Positions 3,124-43,738 of a DNA stretch of 49,403 nt are shown piece by piece. The stretch covers positions 1 to 49,403 of the IMG/VR virus record IMGVR_UViG_3300045988_091734. One strand, given 5' to 3'. A program made the translations under genes and the position numbers. Under the pieces are notes generated by a model. It was not told where the DNA came from. It ran no database searches and was given only the letters and a program-made list of their open reading frames with translations. This DNA comes from a virus. Position 1 is the first letter of the stretch; every line of letters begins with the position of its first letter.

Positions 3124-3501
3124 TCAAGCCTCCCTCTCCCAATAATACGCGGGTATTTCCGCGCCGCTGTCCCAGGCATCGTACCAATCGCCATCAATGG
3201 CACACACAACGTGGTCGTCGATTCCGAGGACGTACACCCCGCGCGGATGCTCACGACAGAAATCCGCGACGGTATAGCAAATTGGACAAGTATCCGGCAG
3301 GGCGTGGCGCGTGAATCCGCGCTCATGCAAGTACCGTCCCCAGACGTGATTGGCGTTAGGCATATCCCCGCAGTCATAGCCCAGCGCACAGAGCGCCGCA
3401 TAGGTGCTGCCCCACGTCTCCCCTGCCGCTTTTGATGCTGCACGGACAGCGCAATCCCCGACGCGCAAGCCGCGCGGATTAGGGTTGTAGTGGATATACA
3501 C
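3124..3501 (-). CDS. hypothetical protein, possible papain-like/NlpC-like Cys-His-Asp hydrolase fold
   Basis: GTG 3501 lies 7 nt after AGGAGG. The ordered GDC...HVVCAIDG...DAWD motifs suggest a cysteine hydrolase triad (inference). Confidence 0.5.
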   Translation of the reverse strand: MYIHYNPNPRGLRVGDCAVRAASKAAGETWGSTYAALCALGYDCGDMPNANHVWGRYLHERGFTRHALPDTCPICYTVADFCREHPRGVYVLGIDDHVVCAIDGDWYDAWDSGAEIPAYYWEREA

Positions 3502-3530: not shown

Positions 3531-3600
3531 GCGATTCGGACGGTTGGAAAATGCAGACAAAGCGCTGAAAAGATGCAAAAAAACTTGCGAAAAATCTTGA
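3531..3600 (+). pseudogene. decayed 3' remnant of an RHH gene (homologous to 5408..5484)
   Basis: gcgattcggacggttg...caaaaaaacttgcgaaaaatcttga parallels gtgattcggcggttg...caaaaaacttgcgaaaaatcttga at the end of CDS 5311..5484, but the frame is broken and shortened. Confidence 0.35.
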
Positions 3601-3607
3601 AATAGTA

Positions 3608-3636
3608 TTGACAAGTTGCACAACTTGTGATATAAT
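3608..3636 (+). promoter_or_regulatory. P1: exact consensus promoter with class-A palindromic operator in the spacer
   Basis: TTGACAagttgcacaacttgtgaTATAAT. The palindrome ACAAGTTG-ca-CAACTTGT (3611-3628) spans the -35 and spacer. Confidence 0.8.
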
Positions 3637-3642
3637 AATTAG

Positions 3643-3693
3643 TGTCAAGGGGGAGGTACAAAATAAAACTCCGGACAGAAAGAGGTAACGAGT
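3643..3693 (+). promoter_or_regulatory. structured 5' leader copy 1 (hairpin + GACAGAAAGAGG RBS)
   Basis: GTCaagggGGAG-GTACAAAATAAAA-CTCCgGAC hairpin (3643-3675), then ACAGAAAGAGGTAAcgagtATG. Confidence 0.6.
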
Positions 3694-4191
3694 ATGGCAC
3701 GAGCAATCGCGGAATGCACCTGCGCCAAGTGTGGCGCGAAATTCGAGAAAGTCCAGTTCCGTTCCAACCGCAAGATGGCGGACGAATGGAAGGCGTGGGC
3801 GGAAGAGAACTGCACCACCTGCCCCGATTGCTGGGCAAAGGTGAAGCAGGAGAAGGACGCTGCGAAGGCGGAGGCTCTAATTGAAGAACTGCATCTCCCA
3901 GAAATCGTCGGAAAATCGGCGAAGCAAGTCAGGTACGCAGATGACTTGCGGAACAAATACATTGTGAGATCTGCTGAATATATTCGCTTCATGCACAATT
4001 GCCTCTGTGATGAGCAATTCAAAGGGCGGAAACAATGCGAGGCAGAAGCCAAAAAAGAAGGGCTGTCCGTCTCAGAATGGATAGAGCAAAGGGCGAACAG
4101 CACGCCATATGATTATGAAAATCATGCGGCATGGACTGTGCTGCATAGCAGCGAAGCGCGAAAAATCATTGACGCGCTGACGAGCTACTAA
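3694..4191 (+). CDS. zinc-ribbon hypothetical protein (first gene of the P1 operon)
   Basis: ATG lies 8 nt after AGAGG of leader 1. Has CAKCG...CTTCPDC cysteine pairs at the N-terminus. Confidence 0.7.
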   Translation: MARAIAECTCAKCGAKFEKVQFRSNRKMADEWKAWAEENCTTCPDCWAKVKQEKDAAKAEALIEELHLPEIVGKSAKQVRYADDLRNKYIVRSAEYIRFMHNCLCDEQFKGRKQCEAEAKKEGLSVSEWIEQRANSTPYDYENHAAWTVLHSSEARKIIDALTSY

Positions 4192-5372: not shown

Positions 5373-5484
5373 GCAAATTAAGGCGATTGGGCAGCGAATT
5401 GGGCTAAGTGATTCGGCGGTTGTCCGCCTTGCCCTATCGCAGTGGCTTGCGGAAAGAGCGCAAAAAACTTGCGAAAAATCTTGA
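5311..5484 (+). CDS. ribbon-helix-helix (CopG/Arc/MetJ-type) DNA-binding protein, RHH-A
   Basis: Not in the ORF track (57 aa). ATG follows an AAGAGGAAC RBS. Pattern is beta strand KNVIVTH, helix EQIKAIGQRIG, helix SDSAVVRLALSQWLAE. The 3' end runs into the upstream block of P2. Confidence 0.65.
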   Translation: MLKKDGNRIVKNVIVTHEQNEQIKAIGQRIGLSDSAVVRLALSQWLAERAQKTCEKS

Positions 5485-5491
5485 AAAGGTA

Positions 5492-5520
5492 TTGACAAGT
5501 TGCGCAACCTGTGCTATAAT
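5492..5520 (+). promoter_or_regulatory. P2: exact consensus promoter with class-A operator (one mismatch)
   Basis: TTGACAagttgcgcaacctgtgcTATAAT with palindrome ACAAGTTGC/GCAACcTGT. Confidence 0.8.
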
Positions 5521-5527
5521 AAATCAT

Positions 5528-5579
5528 GTCAGGATGGTGGTACAAAACAAAAACCCCCCGACAGAAAGAGGTAAGAATT
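5528..5579 (+). promoter_or_regulatory. structured 5' leader copy 2
   Basis: GTCaggatGGTGG-TACAAAACAAAAA-CCCCCcGAC hairpin (5528-5562), then ACAGAAAGAGGTAAgaattATG. Confidence 0.6.
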
Positions 5580-5849
5580 ATGAAGTTGACTGATGGCAAG
5601 CGCACGGTTGAGATTGAGATGCTGACGTGGGACGATAACAAGGAGCGGTATATCGGTAGTGACTACGCTCCCTACTTCTTCGACGGGTGCGAAGGCACGG
5701 ACGCGATGCAAGTGGAAGATGTTGACTACTGCATCGGTCAGGCGGAAGACTGGGAGAGGTTCCGTGGGGACTTCTTGGATGATGAGGCTGCAGAAGGTGA
5801 AGAGCGCGTTGTGCGCGTGACGGAGATTGCAGAGGACAAGGAGCATTAA
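5580..5849 (+). CDS. small, strongly acidic hypothetical protein (about 30% D+E)
   Basis: ATG lies 8 nt after AGAGG of leader 2. 89 aa with 27 D/E by hand count, so a DNA-mimic-like composition. Confidence 0.7.
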   Translation: MKLTDGKRTVEIEMLTWDDNKERYIGSDYAPYFFDGCEGTDAMQVEDVDYCIGQAEDWERFRGDFLDDEAAEGEERVVRVTEIAEDKEH

Positions 5850-5916: not shown

Positions 5917-7746
5917 TTGGAAAAAAACAGCATTTGGACGATTCAAGCGCCTAACGGCACAATATACCGCACAAATCAATTGCGCAAGTTTATGTTTGCG
6001 CATCCAGAATGGTTTGCAAAGCCCGCTACTCAATATGTGACGGCATACAACTTTTTGCAAAAAAAAGAACCGGGAAAACGGCTGTGTACATTCGCAGGTG
6101 GTTGGGTTGTATTATCTAATACTTTCCGCCATGATGATATGGCGCAGTCCATCCATTGGTGGAGAATAAAGTCACCCGATGGCAAGGAACATCTTGTCAT
6201 CGGCGAACGGTATCGACATTTTTTGCAAACATGTGGTTATTTTGAAGTTGGAAGTGAACCATATTATTATTTTAAGTGCGGCTTAAAAAAAGCAAGCGAA
6301 GAAGGAACGCCTGTTACTCTAAAAAATGGATGGATAATCGCGCGTCCTGTCCCGCTCGACGAGTTTCGGCTGGTTGATATTGTAGGACCGGAAATGGAGC
6401 AGGAGTATATCTACGACGCAAACGGAAATTCGCACCCCAAACGCCTTAGCGATGTCCGAAACTACAAACGCGGACAAATTGAGTGGACAATTGCTGACCC
6501 GGACGGCAGAATATACCACACAAAAAGCCTATTTAATTTTTTGCGAGAGCGGAAGGATTTTTCCGAGAACCCACGGTCGGCTGTGGCAATGTTTTCGCAA
6601 ATAATTGCTATACGTTGCGGGTTGAGAAACGGGAAGAAATTAACGTTAAAGAACGGTTGGACTGCGTTAGACCGTTCCGACGTACATGATTTGATTGAGC
6701 AAAGGAAGCAAAACTATCAGGAAAGTGCAACAAACAAGCCGATAGAGCGAAAACACAGAGACTTGACGGGTCAAAGATTTGGGATGCTGACTGCTCTTTA
6801 TCGGCTTGACGGGAAAGGGAAGGCGAAGTGGCGTTGCCGTTGTGATTGCGGAATTGAGAGAGATGTTTTGAGCGACACCCTGATTCGCGGACACAGAACC
6901 AGTTGCGGATGCCGTGGAAGCAAAGACTTGACCAATCAACGTTTTGGCTCTTTGATAGCCCTATACCGAATTACTGGGAACGGCAAGGCAAAATGGCACT
7001 GCCGATGCGATTGTGGCAATGAAAAAGATGTTTTTGGGGAAGACCTCCTTCGCGGAAATACAACGAGTTGTGGATTCTGCAAATACGACGATTTGACTGG
7101 TCAACGTTTCGGTGCATTGACCGTTCTTTCCCGCGTCGAAGGGGAAGAGCGTACAATGTGGCATTGTCGCTGTGACTGCGGCAACGAAAAAGACATATTA
7201 GCCGGCAACTTGCGGAGCGGGCTTGTTACGAGCTGCGGGTGCGGAAGAAACAGAATCGCTGCTCGAACGGAAAGCCTTGCAGTCACACCGCAAGCGTCAT
7301 TTAACGACATCGCCGGGAAACGTTTTGGAATGTTAACTGCTATCCGCTACGACAGGCAAAAACGTCGTTGGCTTTGCCGATGCGATTGCGGAGGCGAGTG
7401 CTACTTAAATTGCGCAGAGCTTAAAACACGCCGTGATTGCGGCTGTTCTGCTGCGCAGGCAGCGGCAGAACGAATAAAAGCTGGCGCAAACGGAAATCGC
7501 CTCGGCACAAACATCAACACCATCACCAATATTATGAGCGGAAAATTACGAAAAACTAACACTTCCGGCATCACTGGCGTATCAATCAAGGGCAATTGCT
7601 ATCGAGCCAGAATTGTCGTGCGTGGGCGCGAAATAAATTTAGGCAAATTTACCACATTAGAAGCTGCCGTCCGCGCAAGAAAAGAAGCAGAAAAGAAGTA
7701 TTTCGCTCCGCTCATCGAGCAAGACAAGGAAAACCAAAAGGAGTAA
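5917..7746 (+). CDS. multi-repeat DNA-binding protein: 3 N-terminal repeats, 4 zinc-ribbon repeats, C-terminal AP2 domain
   Basis: Three W.I..PDG..Y...F...KNGW units. Four DLTGQRFG.LT......W.C.CDCG......L..G...SCGC units (nt ~6760-7450). C-terminal NTSGITGVS...YRARI..RGREINLGKF.TLEAAVRARKEAEKKYF matches the AP2/integrase-type DNA-binding domain. The TTG start is uncertain. Confidence 0.7.
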   Translation: MEKNSIWTIQAPNGTIYRTNQLRKFMFAHPEWFAKPATQYVTAYNFLQKKEPGKRLCTFAGGWVVLSNTFRHDDMAQSIHWWRIKSPDGKEHLVIGERYRHFLQTCGYFEVGSEPYYYFKCGLKKASEEGTPVTLKNGWIIARPVPLDEFRLVDIVGPEMEQEYIYDANGNSHPKRLSDVRNYKRGQIEWTIADPDGRIYHTKSLFNFLRERKDFSENPRSAVAMFSQIIAIRCGLRNGKKLTLKNGWTALDRSDVHDLIEQRKQNYQESATNKPIERKHRDLTGQRFGMLTALYRLDGKGKAKWRCRCDCGIERDVLSDTLIRGHRTSCGCRGSKDLTNQRFGSLIALYRITGNGKAKWHCRCDCGNEKDVFGEDLLRGNTTSCGFCKYDDLTGQRFGALTVLSRVEGEERTMWHCRCDCGNEKDILAGNLRSGLVTSCGCGRNRIAARTESLAVTPQASFNDIAGKRFGMLTAIRYDRQKRRWLCRCDCGGECYLNCAELKTRRDCGCSAAQAAAERIKAGANGNRLGTNINTITNIMSGKLRKTNTSGITGVSIKGNCYRARIVVRGREINLGKFTTLEAAVRARKEAEKKYFAPLIEQDKENQKE

Positions 7747-9279: not shown

Positions 9280-10056
9280 TTAGCCGACACCACCTTCCAG
9301 CGCTGTGACGCGGGCTTCCAACTTCTCGACGCGTTCCGCAAGCTCGTCAAGCGTGGGTGTTTCCGTTTGGGAAATACCCACATCGACAAACTCCGCCATC
9401 ATGTAGCCCTGATTCGTCTCCGTCTCGACGTGAAGCCATCCGCCACTATTCCCGATGACGTTGACAGTCGTGCCGATTTTTACTTTTTCCAGCACCTTTG
9501 CGGATTTGCTCGGCTCTGCGCGAAGGTTGACCGTGCTGCCGCTCTGCGCTGTCACACGTCCAACGCAGATAACATCGTTGCTATCATCCACCATTGGTGT
9601 ATCCTCCTTGTATTCGACTTTTTTGAGGTGTCCTGCGCACGTCCACGATTTGACGGGTGAAGCGACGAAGCCCGTTGCGCTGCTCTGCGCATTGAGAACC
9701 TTGCCGTCCTTCCCCATCAGTCCGATGTGGTAAAAGTCCCTCAAATCGCCGTTGTAGTATTTGCCGCCCTGTTTGTAGCCAGACGGCAAGGCATACCGCG
9801 AATCACCAGGATTCCGGCACTTAAAAACTGCCATTCCGGGCTTTGCGGCGAAGATTGGGACAAGCTCAACAATTTCCGTCCGCGCAATGCGGTTGCTTCC
9901 GTGGTAGATGTGCTGTCCGTGCTGACGATATGACCACACAAACGCGCCGGAGCAGTCAACGTTCCCCGCATCCGCTGCACCAGCCGTATACTTCCAGTGC
10001 TCGTCAAGCATCCGCTGGAAGTCGCCCAGAATGGCGGATACTGCGATTTTGGGCAT
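9280..10056 (-). CDS. endolysin: NlpC/P60-type peptidase + SH3-like cell-wall-binding domain
   Basis: DCSGAFVW (catalytic Cys context) and FYHIGLMG (His). SH3-like GRVTAQSGSTVNLRAEPSKSAKVL...GWLHVE. GAGGAGG RBS. Confidence 0.8.
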   Translation of the reverse strand: MPKIAVSAILGDFQRMLDEHWKYTAGAADAGNVDCSGAFVWSYRQHGQHIYHGSNRIARTEIVELVPIFAAKPGMAVFKCRNPGDSRYALPSGYKQGGKYYNGDLRDFYHIGLMGKDGKVLNAQSSATGFVASPVKSWTCAGHLKKVEYKEDTPMVDDSNDVICVGRVTAQSGSTVNLRAEPSKSAKVLEKVKIGTTVNVIGNSGGWLHVETETNQGYMMAEFVDVGISQTETPTLDELAERVEKLEARVTALEGGVG

Positions 10057-29344: not shown

Positions 29345-29650
29345 TTAGGCTGTCTTGATTGCTTCCACCTGCTGCTTGGTGAACAGGTAGGCGGTTGTCA
29401 GGAAGAACTCGCTATTTTCTTCCTTTGCGTCAACGGTCTTTTCGTCCTTCTTCTTGCGCGTCTTGGGCTTCCAGATGCTCACGGTCAGAGCGGCGTGTTC
29501 CCCTTTCTTGACCATGTACCCGTGATTTTTCCACTCGGCGAAGGTGTGAATCGGGAGGCGCAACCCGTTCATGATGTAGGCTGCGGCTTCCTCTTCGGAG
29601 AAGATGCCCGCGCTGATGGCGGACTTGACGATGATTTCTTCGTTCGACAC
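29345..29650 (-). CDS. hypothetical protein
   Basis: GTG 29650 lies 8 nt after GGAG, right after the upstream stop, so the track start 30013 is judged over-extended across the promoter. Confidence 0.5.
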   Translation of the reverse strand: MSNEEIIVKSAISAGIFSEEEAAAYIMNGLRLPIHTFAEWKNHGYMVKKGEHAALTVSIWKPKTRKKKDEKTVDAKEENSEFFLTTAYLFTKQQVEAIKTA

Positions 29651-29667
29651 GGTACTTGCTCCGCCTC

Positions 29668-29847
29668 TTACTTCACGATGACGGTTTCCCAGTCGGTGAG
29701 GACTGCGGTAGTCCCGAAGCAGTCGTTGGCGATGCGCTTGTACTCTCCAGTCCACGCGTCGCGGGTGTAAGTCCAGTTGCGGGTGGTGTACTCCATGTTG
29801 CGGTTGAGGGTTTCCAGCGCCTTGGTGCTCAGCTTGATGGTCTTCAT
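29668..29847 (-). CDS. small hypothetical protein (first gene after cassette 3)
   Basis: The second ATG (29847) lies 8 nt after AGAGG, matching the spacing in cassettes 1 and 2; 59 aa. Confidence 0.65.
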   Translation of the reverse strand: MKTIKLSTKALETLNRNMEYTTRNWTYTRDAWTGEYKRIANDCFGTTAVLTDWETVIVK

Positions 29848-29897
29848 ACTCATTACCTCTTTCTGTCGGGGGCTTTATTTTGTACCGCCCTCCTGAC
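29848..29897 (-). promoter_or_regulatory. structured 5' leader copy 3
   Basis: Minus strand GTCaggaGGGC-GGTACAAAATAAA-GCCCccGAC (29865-29897), then ACAGAAAGAGGTAAtgagtATG. Confidence 0.6.
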
Positions 29898-29903
29898 ACT
29901 ATT

Positions 29904-29932
29904 ATTATAGCATATACTGCTGTATATGTCAA
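29904..29932 (-). promoter_or_regulatory. P3: exact consensus promoter with class-B palindromic operator
   Basis: TTGACAtatacagcagtatatgcTATAAT with palindrome CATATAC-agca-GTATATG. Confidence 0.8.
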
Positions 29933-29980
29933 GGGGCAAATCACATTTTTTCGAGATTTTTTGCAAACTTTTTTACGCAA

Positions 29981-30010
29981 CAAAAAAGGCGCACCCCAGC
30001 GGATGCGCCC
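29981..30010 (-). terminator. rho-independent terminator after RHH-B
   Basis: Minus strand GGCGCAtCC-gctgg-GGTGCGCC followed by TTTTTT. Confidence 0.7.
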
Positions 30011-30017
30011 CATGCTA

Positions 30018-30291: not shown

Positions 30292-30465
30292 TTACTTTTC
30301 ACGCTTCACCTCTACGATGAACCCGATTTCGTTGCCCTCCCTTTCTGCGATTGTTACAAGTTTCCCATCCAGCTTTGCAAGACGGCTGTACACACAGCCG
30401 CCTTTTTCGAGCTTCTCGCCATTCTTTAACTTCCTGTATTCTTCCTTCGTCAGCGTCACGTTCAT
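30292..30465 (-). CDS. small hypothetical protein (57 aa, not in the track)
   Basis: ATGA overlap with the stop of 30462..31274. MNVTLTKEEYRKLKNGEKLEKGGCVYSRLAKLDGKLVTIAEREGNEIGFIVEVKREK. Confidence 0.45.
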   Translation of the reverse strand: MNVTLTKEEYRKLKNGEKLEKGGCVYSRLAKLDGKLVTIAEREGNEIGFIVEVKREK

Positions 30466-31274
30466 CTTACCCTCCTATCCGTGGATTCCTCAACTTTCTT
30501 GGGCATTTGCCAAATGATTTGCGGAGACTTAAACCAACCGTCATGGTAAAACAAAGTGCCGTTATAGTAGCGCAGGGAATAGCCCGGACGGAATGTCCAC
30601 GCGTTCAGAAGGAATGCGACTTCATCATGGTACTCCGCAGGAATCCTATCGAGCATTGATAATGTATCCACGGCAATATCACACTGGAAAAGACACTCCT
30701 TTTCCTTGATACGGCACGCAATCATGTACCGCGCTTCAACAAGCGCCTCTTCACGCGTCTTGAACACCTTCCGCTCGCAAACAGAGGAGCCGCCAATCCC
30801 CATGTTCCACTGCGGAACAGAACGCACAAGCCGATAAGAAGTCTTGTTTACTTCAACATCAACTCTCACCTCTGCGTCATGATTCGGAATGAGCCAACCA
30901 CGCTTCATGCACGCCATCAGGGTTTCTGATTCAGAAGCGTTCTGTTCGTGCTGTACTTTCACAAACGTATTGAACGCATCGTACTCTTCTTGACAAAACT
31001 GCTTGCGTTTTCCGTACAACTTATCGTAGTCACGATAGGATTCAACAACCCCTTTGGGAATCTTTTTCCACGATTCGTCCGAATGAAACGCACACGCTCG
31101 AACGCCATCGTAAAGGGTAAAGTCCCACAAAGTGTACTTTTCGCCTCGCCAATTGCCGTGCTCATCTTGATATGTAAACAGAGCGAAATGTGCAAGTGGC
31201 GTGAATGTCTGACTGACACGAGCATCTTCCATCTCATAGATAGCAGCCGGGTAAAAACCAAAGAAAGCATCCAT
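30462..31274 (-). CDS. hypothetical protein (gene driven by cassette 4)
   Basis: ATG 31274 lies 9 nt after AGGAGG; 270 aa; no motif recognised. Confidence 0.65.
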   Translation of the reverse strand: MDAFFGFYPAAIYEMEDARVSQTFTPLAHFALFTYQDEHGNWRGEKYTLWDFTLYDGVRACAFHSDESWKKIPKGVVESYRDYDKLYGKRKQFCQEEYDAFNTFVKVQHEQNASESETLMACMKRGWLIPNHDAEVRVDVEVNKTSYRLVRSVPQWNMGIGGSSVCERKVFKTREEALVEARYMIACRIKEKECLFQCDIAVDTLSMLDRIPAEYHDEVAFLLNAWTFRPGYSLRYYNGTLFYHDGWFKSPQIIWQMPKKVEESTDRRVR

Positions 31275-31412
31275 CAAGCAAGACCTCCTTTGCGAATGAA
31301 ATACGGGCAGATAAATCCATCCGAACCAGTGCTTTCATCCGCCCAATATCTGGTTTGTGAGGTTTTCCTTCCTCTTTCTGTCCGGGGTTCTTTTTTTGTA
31401 CCTCCCCTTGAC
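31275..31412 (-). promoter_or_regulatory. structured 5' leader copy 4 (long version)
   Basis: Minus strand GTCaaGGGG-aGGTACAAAAAAAgaa-CCCCgGAC (31380-31412), then ACAGAAAGAGGAAGG and ~95 further nt before the AGGAGG RBS. Confidence 0.55.
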
Positions 31413-31418
31413 ACTATT

Positions 31419-31447
31419 ATTATAGCATATACTGCTATATATGTCAA
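31419..31447 (-). promoter_or_regulatory. P4: exact consensus promoter with class-B operator (one mismatch)
   Basis: TTGACAtatatagcagtatatgcTATAAT. Confidence 0.8.
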
Positions 31448-31480
31448 TGGGGAAATCACATTTTCTTCGGTTTTCTGCAA

Positions 31481-31508
31481 AGAAAATCGCGCACCTTTCG
31501 ATGCGCGA
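31481..31508 (-). terminator. rho-independent terminator after the ArpU/RinA-like gene
   Basis: Minus strand TCGCGCA-tcgaaagg-TGCGCGA followed by TTTTCTTT. Confidence 0.65.
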
Positions 31509-31513
31509 CCGCC

Positions 31514-31909
31514 TTATTCCGCGCTCTGGATTTTCCGTTCCGCGTTACCAATCACGCGGAAGACGTGCTGCTCGGAATACGCCAGATTGTAGCTGATTTC
31601 CCGGACGCTCCTTCCCTCCAGATACCGCATCCTCATGCACTGCACTTCCAGCGAACTTTCCAGCGCATCCACCAGCGGCGCAAGCTCTTCGCGCATCCTG
31701 CACAACTCATCCCAGATTGCTTTTTTGCGCTCCAGCGCCTCGACGCGATACAGCAACCCTTCCTCCGTGCTGTTCATACTCCCGCCCCCGCGCGGCGCGT
31801 CGCTGATTGTCCGCGTCAGCTTCTGCGCCCGGATTCGTGCCTGTTCCGCGCGCAAGCAAGCCATAGGATACCGCCTGATGAGATACCGCATCCGTTTCAA
31901 GTCAACCAT
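31514..31909 (-). CDS. sigma-70 region-4-type transcriptional regulator (ArpU/RinA/DUF1492-like late activator candidate)
   Basis: ATG 31909 follows GGGAGGG. C-terminal LEVQCMRMRYLEGRSVREISYNLAYSEQHVFRVIGNAERKI is region-4-like. Confidence 0.55.
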   Translation of the reverse strand: MVDLKRMRYLIRRYPMACLRAEQARIRAQKLTRTISDAPRGGGSMNSTEEGLLYRVEALERKKAIWDELCRMREELAPLVDALESSLEVQCMRMRYLEGRSVREISYNLAYSEQHVFRVIGNAERKIQSAE

Positions 31910-31934
31910 TTTTCCCTCCCGCAACCGCCCGCGA

Positions 31935-40409: not shown

Positions 40410-40607
40410 TCAGAACTCGTTCCGTCTCTGATACTGGTCGTTCCTGCGCTTCTCCCAGCGCCAATCTTCACCCGTTCGGCTGGCTTCATCAACCCTCCGC
40501 ACGGGCTTCCTGCACCCGCGCGGCACTTCTTCCGTCTGGCTGCATCCGCAGTCACAGCGCTCCCCGCTATCCAGATATGCCCAGCACAGGCAGCAGCGTC
40601 TTGCCAC
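40410..40607 (-). CDS. small Cys-rich hypothetical protein
   Basis: CCLCW...CDCGC; GTG 40607 lies 8 nt after AAGGGG. Confidence 0.45.
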   Translation of the reverse strand: MARRCCLCWAYLDSGERCDCGCSQTEEVPRGCRKPVRRVDEASRTGEDWRWEKRRNDQYQRRNEF

Positions 40608-40612
40608 GAAAC

Positions 40613-41128
40613 TCACCCCTTCTGCACCGCGAAAACCGGGTCGCGCGGAATAATCTTGATTCCGGGAACGACTTCGCCCGTCAACTCATCAATCGCCTGT
40701 CCGTTGTTCTCCGTAATCAGCCCTTTCAGCGCCGTCCATTTCAGTTTCGGCACGTTCTCAACGCAGGACGGCGCATTCTCGGCACACCACGCGATAATCT
40801 GCGCATCGTCGCGCTCGTACTCCGGCGCTTGCGCCTTGCGAACCAGAACGCCGCTCGGCAGCTTGTACTTCTCGCTGGTCTTTGTCGCCTTGTGCGGAAC
40901 GGTTTCGAAGTAGCTTTCCAGCAGCGCTGTGAAGTAGTCAATGCTCTGCTGGTTGGACTGCGCCACGCGCTCGCTCTGCGCCTTGTAGTAGTCCTTCCAT
41001 TTCTGCGTATCGGCTTCCAGCTCCGCGATACGGCGAACCGCCCAGTCTGCCTTCTGGTCGTTGTCGATGACAAACCCCGCGCGTTCTTCCTGCTCGTTTT
41101 CCTCGATTTCGTCAATGAACTGCTCCAT
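40613..41128 (-). CDS. Mu Gam-like host-nuclease inhibitor protein
   Basis: FVIDNDQKADWAVRRIAELEADTQKWKDYYKAQ...KYKLPSGVLVRK fits the Gam-like family as recalled. ATG 41128 follows GAAAGGAAG. An in-frame GTG at 41182 is an alternative start. Confidence 0.6.
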   Translation of the reverse strand: MEQFIDEIEENEQEERAGFVIDNDQKADWAVRRIAELEADTQKWKDYYKAQSERVAQSNQQSIDYFTALLESYFETVPHKATKTSEKYKLPSGVLVRKAQAPEYERDDAQIIAWCAENAPSCVENVPKLKWTALKGLITENNGQAIDELTGEVVPGIKIIPRDPVFAVQKG

Positions 41129-41133
41129 ATATG

Positions 41134-41162
41134 TTGACTTCCTTTCGTTTTTGTGGTAGAAT
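41134..41162 (+). promoter_or_regulatory. P10: strong near-consensus promoter on the plus strand (TTGACT-17-TGgTAGAAT)
   Basis: TTGACTtcctttcgtttttgTGgTAGAAT faces away from gam; the CATATATG box abuts the -35. Confidence 0.65.
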
Positions 41163-41168
41163 GGCAGT

Positions 41169-41239
41169 GGCTTAACCGCCACATTACCCTTTCTGTCTGC
41201 TCGTGATGCGCTTTGTACCCGCGTCACGGGCGCTTTTTT
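41169..41239 (+). ncRNA. candidate ~70-nt antisense RNA complementary to the gam leader and to the conserved blocks of the four cassette leaders
   Basis: Downstream of P10 there is no RBS or ORF. ATTACCCTTTCTGTC lies at 41183-41197. The 9-bp stem CGTGATGCG/CGCGTCACG has loop CTTTGTACC (41211-41219) and is followed by T6 at 41234-41239. Confidence 0.5.
41183..41228 (-). promoter_or_regulatory. structured 5' leader copy 5 (no consensus promoter) upstream of gam
   Basis: Minus strand CGTGACGCG-GGTACAAAG-CGCATCACG, then gagcaGACAGAAAGGGTAAT. The loop and RBS block are shared with cassettes 1-4. Confidence 0.5.
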
Positions 41240-41522
41240 ATGCCCTTCTCCGGGCGATTGTTCCGTCAGGATTCATCAGCCCGCGCGCTACAAGGTCATT
41301 GCGCTTCTTGCGCTGGCGGATGACCTCGTTCTCCTGCTCCTGCGTCGGATAACGCTTGCGCCGCTCCAGCTCCTGCTCAAAGTCGCTGACCGTGACGCGG
41401 ATGGTTTCGTGCGCCTTGCCGCCGATGCAGATGTGCGGCATTTCGCGCATAAATTTCCGGGCGCTCTCCTTGCTGATGCAGAGGATTTCGGCGACGCGCT
41501 CCGTGTTAAGGTATTGCGTCAT
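41238..41522 (-). CDS. excisionase/MerR-like HTH (HTH_17-type) protein
   Basis: ATG 41522 (ATGA overlap). MTQYLNTERVAEILCISKESARKFMREMPHICIGG. Confidence 0.5.
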   Translation of the reverse strand: MTQYLNTERVAEILCISKESARKFMREMPHICIGGKAHETIRVTVSDFEQELERRKRYPTQEQENEVIRQRKKRNDLVARGLMNPDGTIARRRA

Positions 41523-42679: not shown

Positions 42680-42973
42680 TTAGACAGCGACCGTCGCCGT
42701 CTTGTCCATCTCGTACTTAACCGCCAACAGCAGGGCTTCCATCACGGCTTCATACGCGCAGTATGCCTCGCTGATGTAGTCCCAGTTCCCCAGCTTTGCG
42801 AACTCGTCGCGCGTCATGGCTTTCAGCTTCTTCGCGCTCTGGCGGATGGCGAAAATCGCCATGTTCGCGTCACCGCGCGATACACAATCACCCATGCACT
42901 GGTTTTGAATGTCCTTGCCGTACTCGTCCAGCAGACGGTTCGCGATTCGAACCTTGATAACTTCATCGCTCAT
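42680..42973 (-). CDS. hypothetical protein
   Basis: ATG 42973 follows an AAAGGGG RBS; 97 aa. Confidence 0.55.
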   Translation of the reverse strand: MSDEVIKVRIANRLLDEYGKDIQNQCMGDCVSRGDANMAIFAIRQSAKKLKAMTRDEFAKLGNWDYISEAYCAYEAVMEALLLAVKYEMDKTATVAV

Positions 42974-43014
42974 TGTGATACCCCTTTCTATCTTTGCGCT
43001 TTTCGCGCTGTTAG

Positions 43015-43709: not shown

Positions 43710-43738
43710 ATTATACATCAACTTTGCGTTGATGTCAA
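43710..43738 (-). promoter_or_regulatory. P5: exact consensus early promoter with palindromic operator in the spacer
   Basis: TTGACAtcaacgcaaagttgatgTATAAT with palindrome CATCAAC-N5-GTTGATG (43716-43734). An extra CATCAAC half-site lies at 43671-43677. Confidence 0.8.

Follow-up and report, generated by a model that had tools for sequence, protein, structure and literature searches.

Promoter-leader cassettes of the window

We analysed computationally a stretch of viral DNA of 49,403 nucleotides (nt), IMGVR_UViG_3300045988_091734, referred to here as the window, which is a temperate, siphovirus-like phage. It carries four copies of an expression cassette, c1 to c4, and a fifth related site beside a Mu Gam-like gene (gam). 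Our subject is the leader common to the cassettes and a candidate antisense small RNA (sRNA) encoded across the fifth site, whose unpaired segments are complementary to that leader. An initial annotation of this DNA had listed the four cassettes and the fifth site, and we recovered each of their elements where it had placed them.

The four cassettes share an A-rich block, an exact TTGACA-17-TATAAT promoter, a hairpin at the predicted 5′ end of the transcript and, after the hairpin, GACAGAAAGAGGTAA (Table 1). The leader is laid out as GTC, a G-rich arm, GGTACAAAA, an A-rich segment, a C-rich arm, GAC and AGAAAGAGG. The promoters had been described as exact and are so in all four cassettes; the window contains nine copies of TTGACA-N17-TATAAT where 0.1 would be expected, and each cassette promoter has a TG-extended -10. 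As annotated, the hairpin begins 7-8 nt past the -10, and 8 nt separate AGAGG from the ATG in c1, c2 and c3. Cassette c4 has no such ATG: here GACAGAAAGAGG at 31382-31371 is followed by GAAGG in place of TAA, so that the sequence reads GAAGGAAAACCTC, a variant also present in the related locus L005. The 5′ arm of the hairpin holds AGGAGG or AAGGGG, which resemble a Shine-Dalgarno (SD) sequence, and other consensus-promoter leaders of these phages likewise open with hairpins. An 11-bp intrinsic terminator lies directly upstream of both c3 and c4.

Two motifs mark the five elements. The loop motif GGTACAAAR, for which 0.43 occurrences would be expected, was found six times in the window, and all but one of these lie inside the elements. 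The downstream motif GACAGAAAGRG occurs without mismatch exactly five times, always inside them.

The promoter spacers are palindromic, with CAAGTTGcacAACTTG in c1 and c2 and CATATACagcaGTATATG in c3 and c4. At least three kinds of palindrome, CAAGTTGcacAACTTG, CATATACagcaGTATATG and CATCAACgcaaaGTTGATG, are found among the spacers at 3614-3630, 5498-5514, 29926-29910, 31441-31425 and 43732-43716. In relatives the promoter hexamers are kept and the palindrome is exchanged, for example for CAAGGTATATACCTTG, CATATTGCCGGGAATATG or CATTCACGCAAAGTGAATG. These palindromes look like operators of exchangeable specificity for the several XRE-type helix-turn-helix (HTH) proteins of the phage, and their differences between cassette pairs and between phages suggest separate transcriptional control by phage HTH proteins.

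Table 1. Positions of cassettes, candidate sRNA gene, predicted targets and neighbouring genes in the window, and of antisense elements in distant phages (ORF, open reading frame; RBS, ribosome-binding site; aa, amino acids)
Feature	Position	Strand	Details
Cassette c1	3578..3696	+	UP-like A-rich block; promoter 3608-3636 (-35 3608-3613; -10 3631-3636); hairpin GTC...GAC 3644-3676; loop motif GGTACAAA 3655-3662; seed target GACAGAAAGAGGTAA 3674-3688; ATG 3694, 165-aa ORFan
Cassette c2	5462..5582	+	promoter 5492-5520 (-35 5492-5497; -10 5515-5520); hairpin 5528-5562; loop motif 5539-5546; seed target 5560-5574; ATG 5580, 89-aa ORFan
Cargo behind c2	5917-7746	+	609-aa HNH endonuclease; phrog_374, E 1e-71
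Cargo behind c3	29345-29680	-	ArdC-N-like anti-restriction domain protein; PF08401, E 3e-06
Cassette c3	29845..30011	-	terminator 30011-29986; promoter 29932-29904 (-35 29932-29927; -10 29909-29904); hairpin 29897-29865; loop motif 29886-29879; seed target 29867-29853; ATG 29847, 59-aa ORFan
Cassette c4	31372..31510	-	terminator 31510-31485; promoter 31447-31419 (-35 31447-31442; -10 31424-31419); hairpin 31412-31380; loop motif 31402-31395; long leader up to 271-aa ORF 30462-31277
gam	40613..41128	-	Mu Gam-like (PF07352), 172 codons; true gene downstream of the fifth copy
sRNA promoter	41134..41162	+	TTGACT-17-TAGAAT with TGn; between gam SD and gam ATG, on the other strand
Candidate antisense sRNA	41169..41240	+	~72 nt; SL1 41169-41180; unpaired linker 41181-41197; seed UUACCCUUUCUGUC 41184-41197, within the linker; terminator hairpin 41198-41232; loop CUUUGUACC 41211-41219; U-tract 41234-41239
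Candidate seed-only target	42971..42992	-	RBS GATAGAAAGGGG, 8 nt, ATG 42973
Antisense element, L290	6812-6905		antisense to gam
Antisense element, L292	205-285		antisense to gam
Antisense element, L293	9897-9989		antisense to gam
Antisense element, L297	4864-4953		antisense to gam
Antisense element, L306	~9880-9990		antisense to gam; 60-80 nt
Antisense element, L308	~3390-3490		antisense to gam; 60-80 nt

A candidate small-RNA gene at the fifth site

The fifth site shares the loop and the GACAGAAAGGGTAA motif with the four cassettes. On the minus strand (41228-41183) it has the stem CGTGACGCG/CGCATCACG, the loop GGTACAAAG and GACAGAAAGGGTAAT, just as had been described. Its earlier reading as a promoter-less copy of the leader did not hold. 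The ATG or GTG after GACAGAAAGGGTAA is not conserved, since relatives read ATGTGG, AGTGG or AGGGG, and the ATG that follows GACAGAAAGGGTA gives way to AGTGG or AGGGG in many of them. The start codon of gam lies 56 nt beyond the apparent start codon of the fifth copy and has an SD of its own, AAAGGAAG; independent gene calls in relatives leave a gap of 110 nt upstream of gam. A 147-aa ORF from the ATG of the fifth copy (40741-41184, minus strand) was rejected as a spurious overlapping frame of gam.

The fifth copy is the complement of a sequence that folds better on the opposite strand. We propose that it is a candidate for a complete small-RNA gene of that strand, with promoter and terminator. 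The predicted RNA consists of a small 5′ hairpin, a 17-nt unpaired linker, a GC-rich terminator stem of 13 bp with a 9-nt loop, and a U6 tail. The plus strand at 41169-41240 has a minimum free energy of -25.0 kcal/mol (z -3.87), which none of 200 shuffled sequences equalled, compared with -17.7 kcal/mol (z -0.66) for the minus strand, and it was the more stable strand in 16 of 18 sequence variants. This asymmetry arises because U.G pairs become A.C or C.A mismatches on the opposite strand; the pair of alignment columns 33-62, for instance, is U.G in 11 of 12 variants and A.C on the other strand. One variable pair of the sRNA stem is seen as CG, UA, UG and AU.

Neither the sRNA nor the cassette belongs to any Rfam family by a scan of the window. 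An E-value scan of 41050-41350 returned only Esr41 (E = 0.99), the c3 region gave nothing meaningful, and the Rfam covariance model of the C4 antisense RNA did not match the sRNA. Likewise, no match was obtained when the sRNA and one cassette were compared with GenBank phages by blastn. The only gathering-level match of the window was a DUF3800-VII RNA at 260-338 on the minus strand (48.7 bits, E 6.5e-07), which begins just downstream of an exact consensus promoter at 373-345(-).

Complementarity between the small RNA and the leaders

In the predicted sRNA only the linker UUACCCUUUCUGUC (..AUUACCCUUUCUGUCU..) and the terminator loop CUUUGUACC form long unpaired segments. The first is exactly complementary to the cassette motif GACAGAAAG(A)GGUAA over the SD and the second to the motif GGUACAAA. 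The loop can form 8 bp with GGUACAAA of the promoter-linked (class A) leader. The linker can form 9 + 5 bp with GACAGAAAG-A-GGUAA, leaving one bulged A, and 11 contiguous bp with the GACAGAAAGGGAAAG (GGGAAAG) variant. Since the linker pairing spans the region from the SD to a few nucleotides short of the start codon, it accounts for the conservation of GACA upstream and TAA downstream of the SD, which translation does not need.

Cofolding of the seed with its targets was compared with shuffled sequences; this calculation models seed pairing only, and kissing cannot be represented in it. The free-energy change (ddG) was -18.3 kcal/mol for c1 (z -2.3), -15.7 for c2 (z -2.5) and -20.4 for c3 (z -3.3). 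Two controls, the leader at 43710 (-10.8 kcal/mol) and the gam RBS (-6.5 kcal/mol), both had z about 0. A further RBS, at 42992-42982, reached -18.3 kcal/mol (z -2.9). This RBS, GATAGAAAGGGG, forms 11 pairs with the seed including one U.G, its homologue in L283 reads GACAGAAAGGGG, and it is listed in Table 1 as a candidate target for the seed only.

The RBS of a small gene following gam, GCAGAAGGGGUGA (40602-40631, minus strand), can form about 12 pairs with the seed including two G.U. Among the duplex energies of the window scan, its -28.6 kcal/mol was second only to that of the self site; this RBS may be another sRNA target or a purine-rich sequence that matches by chance.

Conservation in related phages

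A motif scan of IMG/VR returned more than 118 loci, mostly on contigs of ~50 kb, which fall into two classes. Class A is the promoter-linked cassette, which can be repeated in tandem at intervals of ~1.1 kb, with no more than three units (e.g. in L004 and L094). Class B is the fifth-copy type; a model search gave one sRNA match in each of seven phage loci, which are partial, the whole-genome copy number of the sRNA covering the window alone. The sRNA locus and cassettes occur together on the same ~50-kb contigs, for example 076177, 079226, 058537, 077181, 087146 and 077192.

We located the sRNA element in relatives by anchoring on the neighbouring gene. Of 44 related loci, 43 keep the element almost unchanged, with only 67-88% identity in the translated flanking ORF that served as the anchor. 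The -35, the TG and the 17-nt length of the spacer are invariant in 45/45, with 9 of the 17 spacer positions varying; the -10 is TAGAAT, TATAAT or TAGACT, and a T-run of 6-9 nt is present in 44/44. A working promoter and terminator would be conserved in this way, and a 5′ untranslated region would not. Seed and loop are invariant in the 44 loci and the middle of the stem varies. Such freezing would be expected from many dispersed targets in trans, which we regard as the strongest indirect argument, because a purely cis-acting antisense RNA would be free to drift together with its template.

Among the cassettes, the same leader stands before 35 distinct N-termini from ~16 gene families (79 distinct cassettes). 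The cassette is thus a portable module.

More distant phages carry a comparable arrangement. An antisense element of 60-80 nt, made of a terminator hairpin and a T-run, occupies the corresponding position upstream of gam in L290, L292, L293, L297, L306 and L308, and the stems are mutually unrelated. Gam identity is 54, 63, 49 and 38% for L290, L292, L293 and L297. Most of the elements also have a promoter-like site, identified with the scan tool for L293 and L297 and by visual inspection for L290, L292, L306 and L308, and the -35 often lies directly against the gam start codon. In most Gam relatives of 34-52% identity both the intergenic gap and the sRNA are absent. The syntenic elements support a real, positionally conserved small-RNA gene, and the gam-antisense elements of divergent gut phages may represent a class of phage small RNAs that is defined by position and widespread. 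No convincing targets were detected within the available sequence of L306, L308 and L297, and a search for longer contigs with the L292-type sRNA found none.

At one contig end (L109 14843-14874 / L260 51-82, IMGVR_UViG_3300045988_045207) a single CRISPR-like repeat, GTCGCCCCTCGCGGAGGGGCGTGAATTGAAAT, adjoins the sRNA promoter with the first 11 nt of the RNA. We take the repeat to be type I-C-like; about 50 nt follow before the contig ends. Either the phage bears a solitary repeat or the junction is an assembly chimera that arose through a host spacer directed against this region.

Structure of the leader hairpin

Next, we consider whether the leader itself is a structured RNA element, as the initial annotation had concluded from stem arms that differ between copies and stay complementary. 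The hairpins are weak, with -8.3 to -14.8 kcal/mol in the four cassettes and -15.3 kcal/mol for the minus-strand fold of the fifth site; z ranges from -0.3 to -2.9 over the five. The stem arms are G-runs facing C-runs, and several pairing registers are possible. The loops are 9-16 nt long (13-16 nt being the value quoted for the cassettes), and the loop motif is predicted to be 78-97% unpaired. The annotation had pointed to compensatory changes in the cassettes of relatives as a check, and RNAalifold found none: among 41 distinct homologous hairpins, 0 of 8 pairs were compensatory and the covariation term was -0.03 kcal/mol. Moreover, 5′ and 3′ arms swapped between copies folded nearly as well as cognate arms (-8.54 and -9.25 kcal/mol), at a cost of only 0.7 kcal/mol. 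We therefore rejected stem covariation in the cassette hairpin.

The loop, earlier called invariant, proved near-invariant, also in a promoter-anchored sample that was not selected on the loop; GGTACAAA is present in 72 of 79 distinct cassettes. What stands of the functional RNA leader proposed earlier is a real, repeated module of promoter, hairpin and RBS, and what falls is the evidence from covariation together with the interpretation of the fifth copy. The function of the conserved loop is most likely exerted in the RNA. Hairpins that stabilise mRNA, such as those of the ompA, aprE and ermC leaders, need a stem and not a defined loop sequence. The near-invariant loop and the invariant GACAGAAAGAGGTAA make better sense as two sites targeted by the sRNA than as parts of a structured leader that stands by itself. 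Two further readings, a CsrA-type GGA site and a sigma-dependent pause element (the -10-like TACAAA), were set aside because they leave the fifth site unexplained.

Proposed mechanism and alternative explanations

By computation, both elements are present and conserved, the sRNA has a strand-specific structure, and the complementarity falls on unpaired segments. We consider it probable, though well short of certain, that a trans-acting phage antisense RNA attaches to the leader loop and blocks access to the RBS of every cassette gene. According to this model, the cassettes would be portable early-expression modules made of a terminator, an A-rich block, a sigma-A-type promoter, an operator-like palindrome, a 5′ hairpin and a strong RBS, driving ORFan and anti-restriction-like accessory genes. 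The most conserved segments of the leader, GGUACAAA in the 5′ half of the loop and GACAGAAAG(A)GGUAA, would be the binding sites of one sRNA. The terminator loop CUUUGUACC would kiss the leader loop over 8 bp, and the single-stranded linker UUACCCUUUCUGUC would then zip onto the RBS. The 30S subunit would be kept off and the mRNA probably destabilised. The leader stem would present the loop and may also protect the 5′ end. Transcription of the sRNA, its actual pairing with the leaders and the repressive outcome are what we infer from these features.

Several results weigh against the antisense model or limit the support for it. Cofolding with c4 (ddG -9.6 kcal/mol, z 0.2) was no better than with shuffled sequences. 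Many purine-rich, RBS-like sites of the window are also good partners for the C/U-rich seed, so that energy alone is not specific, and a whole-window scan of duplex energies did not separate the cassettes from other sites. In favour of the model, identity in 96 promoter-anchored cassettes drops where the complementarity ends, just after GGTACAAA(A) in the loop and just after GGTAA; as conservation is high throughout from the -10 to GGTAA, these borders are only suggestive. Also in its favour, variant seeds (GATAGAAAG twice, GACGGAAAG) in 3/3 cases and variant loops in 4/6 cases differ by A>G or C>U, so that wobble pairing with the sRNA is retained, an excess that is not significant (about P = 0.1). 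Because seed and loop do not vary in the 44 loci, no compensatory change of sRNA and target could be shown across lineages. Matches in distant phages are suggestive only. In L293 the terminator loop CUUGUCC faces a leader hairpin loop GGACAAG located 9 nt before an RBS, but this 7-mer is over-represented in that locus and the seed ddG does not stand out (z -0.4). In L290 the sRNA loops match three RBSs by 9-10 nt, which is statistically weak.

The simplest rival is a generic expression cassette, in which the hairpin protects the mRNA 5′ end, GAAAGAGG is a plain strong RBS, conservation reflects recent duplication or recombination that keeps the copies alike, and the fifth site has decayed from such a copy. 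The G-rich arm may in this case serve as an SD-like stabiliser resembling known Firmicutes 5′ stabilisers. The hairpin at the predicted +1, the SD-like AGGAGG or AAGGGG of its 5′ arm, the hairpins that open other consensus-promoter leaders of these phages and the conservation above 90% at most positions of the 96 cassettes all agree with this explanation. Its proposed role is also compatible with the sRNA and the two may coexist. However, it does not tell why a site with no other resemblance has retained precisely the 8-nt loop and the 14-nt flank when its stems have fully diverged, why that site has no conserved start codon, or why its opposite strand has a conserved promoter, a U-tract and a far better fold, and hairpins of -8 to -15 kcal/mol are weak. 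We consider it unlikely as an alternative. We give still less credence to an RNA operator, in which a translational repressor or N-like antiterminator of the phage would recognise the A-rich loop and GACAGAAAG, the fifth site being a “sixth” binding site within the early operon. A hairpin with an A-rich loop at the start of an early transcript does recall boxB/nut sites and operators of the RegA or coat-protein type, there is an internal copy within the early operon, and many small unannotated and HTH proteins are encoded nearby. Yet a search for a lambda-type nut site (boxA plus boxB with a GNRA-like pentaloop) found no boxA-like sequence beside the hairpins, whose loops are not pentaloops, and family scans of the neighbouring genes, which were not exhaustive, identified neither an N-like protein nor another candidate RNA-binding protein. 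In addition, the minus-strand hairpin of the fifth site has C.A mismatches where the plus strand has G.U pairs, and the promoter and terminator of the plus strand would have no explanation.

We regard as very improbable a purely DNA-level module, that is, a ~130-bp cassette kept mainly as a substrate of homologous recombination that shuffles accessory genes, with a hairpin that has no RNA role. One leader before ~16 unrelated gene families, the tandem units and the terminators immediately upstream of c3 and c4 all suit this idea, as does the precedent of PeSLs, sigma-70-like promoters with terminator stem-loops that mediate modular shuffling (PMC2839356). It explains how the cassettes spread and is not exclusive with the antisense model, but it accounts neither for the fact that the fifth site has only two short motifs in common with the cassettes nor for the strand-specific structure and promoter found there. 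The generic-cassette and recombination explanations probably contribute to the properties and spread of the cassettes. None of the three explains the strand-specific gene structure of the fifth site or the sharing of only two motifs.

An extension of the antisense model, which we think possible but rather doubtful, treats the cassette as a plug-in module that would place any captured gene under a strong promoter, a swappable spacer operator and one small RNA. The sRNA gene would have arisen as the antisense of one leader. The early-operon transcript, a perfect complement of the sRNA, could titrate it when the early operon fires, and this sponge together with convergent interference would release the cassette genes, which likely would have anti-defence or host-takeover functions. 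The unrelated gam-antisense RNAs would then be a widespread, undescribed class of riboregulators.

Comparison with known systems

The closest functional parallel is the c4 RNA of P1/P7 (immI; the name is unrelated to our cassette c4), whose exposed complementary segments pair with two sites around an RBS and block translation (PMC12197685). Both are small phage RNAs with short complementary segments in loops or single strands, and the target of the c4 RNA is an accessory or antirepressor function. There is no sequence or Rfam relationship. The c4 RNA is processed from the transcript of its target, belongs to a single operon and acts in E. coli, whereas the candidate sRNA has its own convergent promoter and terminator, would address at least four dispersed, independently promoted cassettes and comes from a phage with a Firmicutes-like host. 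The plasmid copy-number regulators CopA/CopT (R1) and RNAI/RNAII (ColE1) likewise have a regulator loop complementary to a target loop. As in those systems, a second single-stranded segment would complete the pairing and cover the RBS. Their complementarity is extended and full, in contrast to an 8-nt loop and a 14-nt seed with unrelated stems here.

P22 sar and lambda OOP are short, terminator-ended antisense RNAs that face an early or regulatory operon and repress the neighbouring gene (PMC12197685). The candidate sRNA shares with them its short length, the terminator at its end and a promoter facing the early operon. However, they act only on the fully complementary transcript, a site that here has no RBS to block, and the predicted targets of the candidate sRNA are partly complementary sites elsewhere in the genome.

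The leader hairpins resemble the ompA, aprE and ermC stabilisers in being stem-loops at or near the mRNA 5′ end that are followed by a strong RBS. They differ in being weak and in having the loop as their conserved part, and their position at the 5′ end is deduced from the -10. In architecture, and only there, the cassette fits the PeSLs of T4-type phages, in which variable ORFans are flanked by repeats of a strong sigma-70-like promoter with a terminator stem-loop, an arrangement that permits modular shuffling (PMC2839356). Consensus promoters, the terminators upstream of c3 and c4 and the ~16 families agree with this. The stem-loop of a PeSL is a terminator upstream of the promoter, whereas our cassette additionally has a transcribed 5′ hairpin and an RBS with motifs complementary to the sRNA, and the phage is temperate and siphovirus-like, not T4-like. 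The proposed mechanism is classical; what is new is the RNA family and a bipartite target embedded in a mobile promoter-leader cassette.

Phage context and implications

The portal protein of the phage is about 36% identical to portals of Clostridium and other Firmicutes phages, and related contigs come from human gut metagenomes. The genome carries many XRE-type HTH genes in addition to Mu Gam-like and ERF-type recombination genes. No isolate of this phage family was found in GenBank; a 6-kb blastn search of GenBank phages returned one irrelevant match, and a motif scan of genome contigs for the host gave chance matches only among the first 120 matches listed. Apart from the two cargo genes behind c2 and c3 (Table 1), the cassette genes had no family match. 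Just upstream of the c4 terminator, a 136-aa ORF (31514-31924, minus strand) has a C-terminus that resembles, by eye, sigma-70 region 4 or a late activator of the RinA/ArpU type, which would place c4 and c3 between a putative late regulator and the packaging genes.

Few regulatory RNAs have been characterised in phages of Gram-positive gut bacteria. If the antisense model is wrong, the cassette still shows clearly that temperate gut phages have modular promoter cassettes akin to PeSLs. If it is true, the sRNA would represent a new family of small RNAs, with a defined regulon of several genes within a single phage, and would give a rationale for one leader common to unrelated accessory genes. 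An RNA of ~72 nt and a leader of ~45 nt would then form a simple Firmicutes system for two-step antisense recognition, loop then seed, and the cassette a compact, portable and repressible expression unit for engineering. The ~16 co-regulated ORFan families, one of them ArdC-like, would be good candidates for early anti-defence functions.

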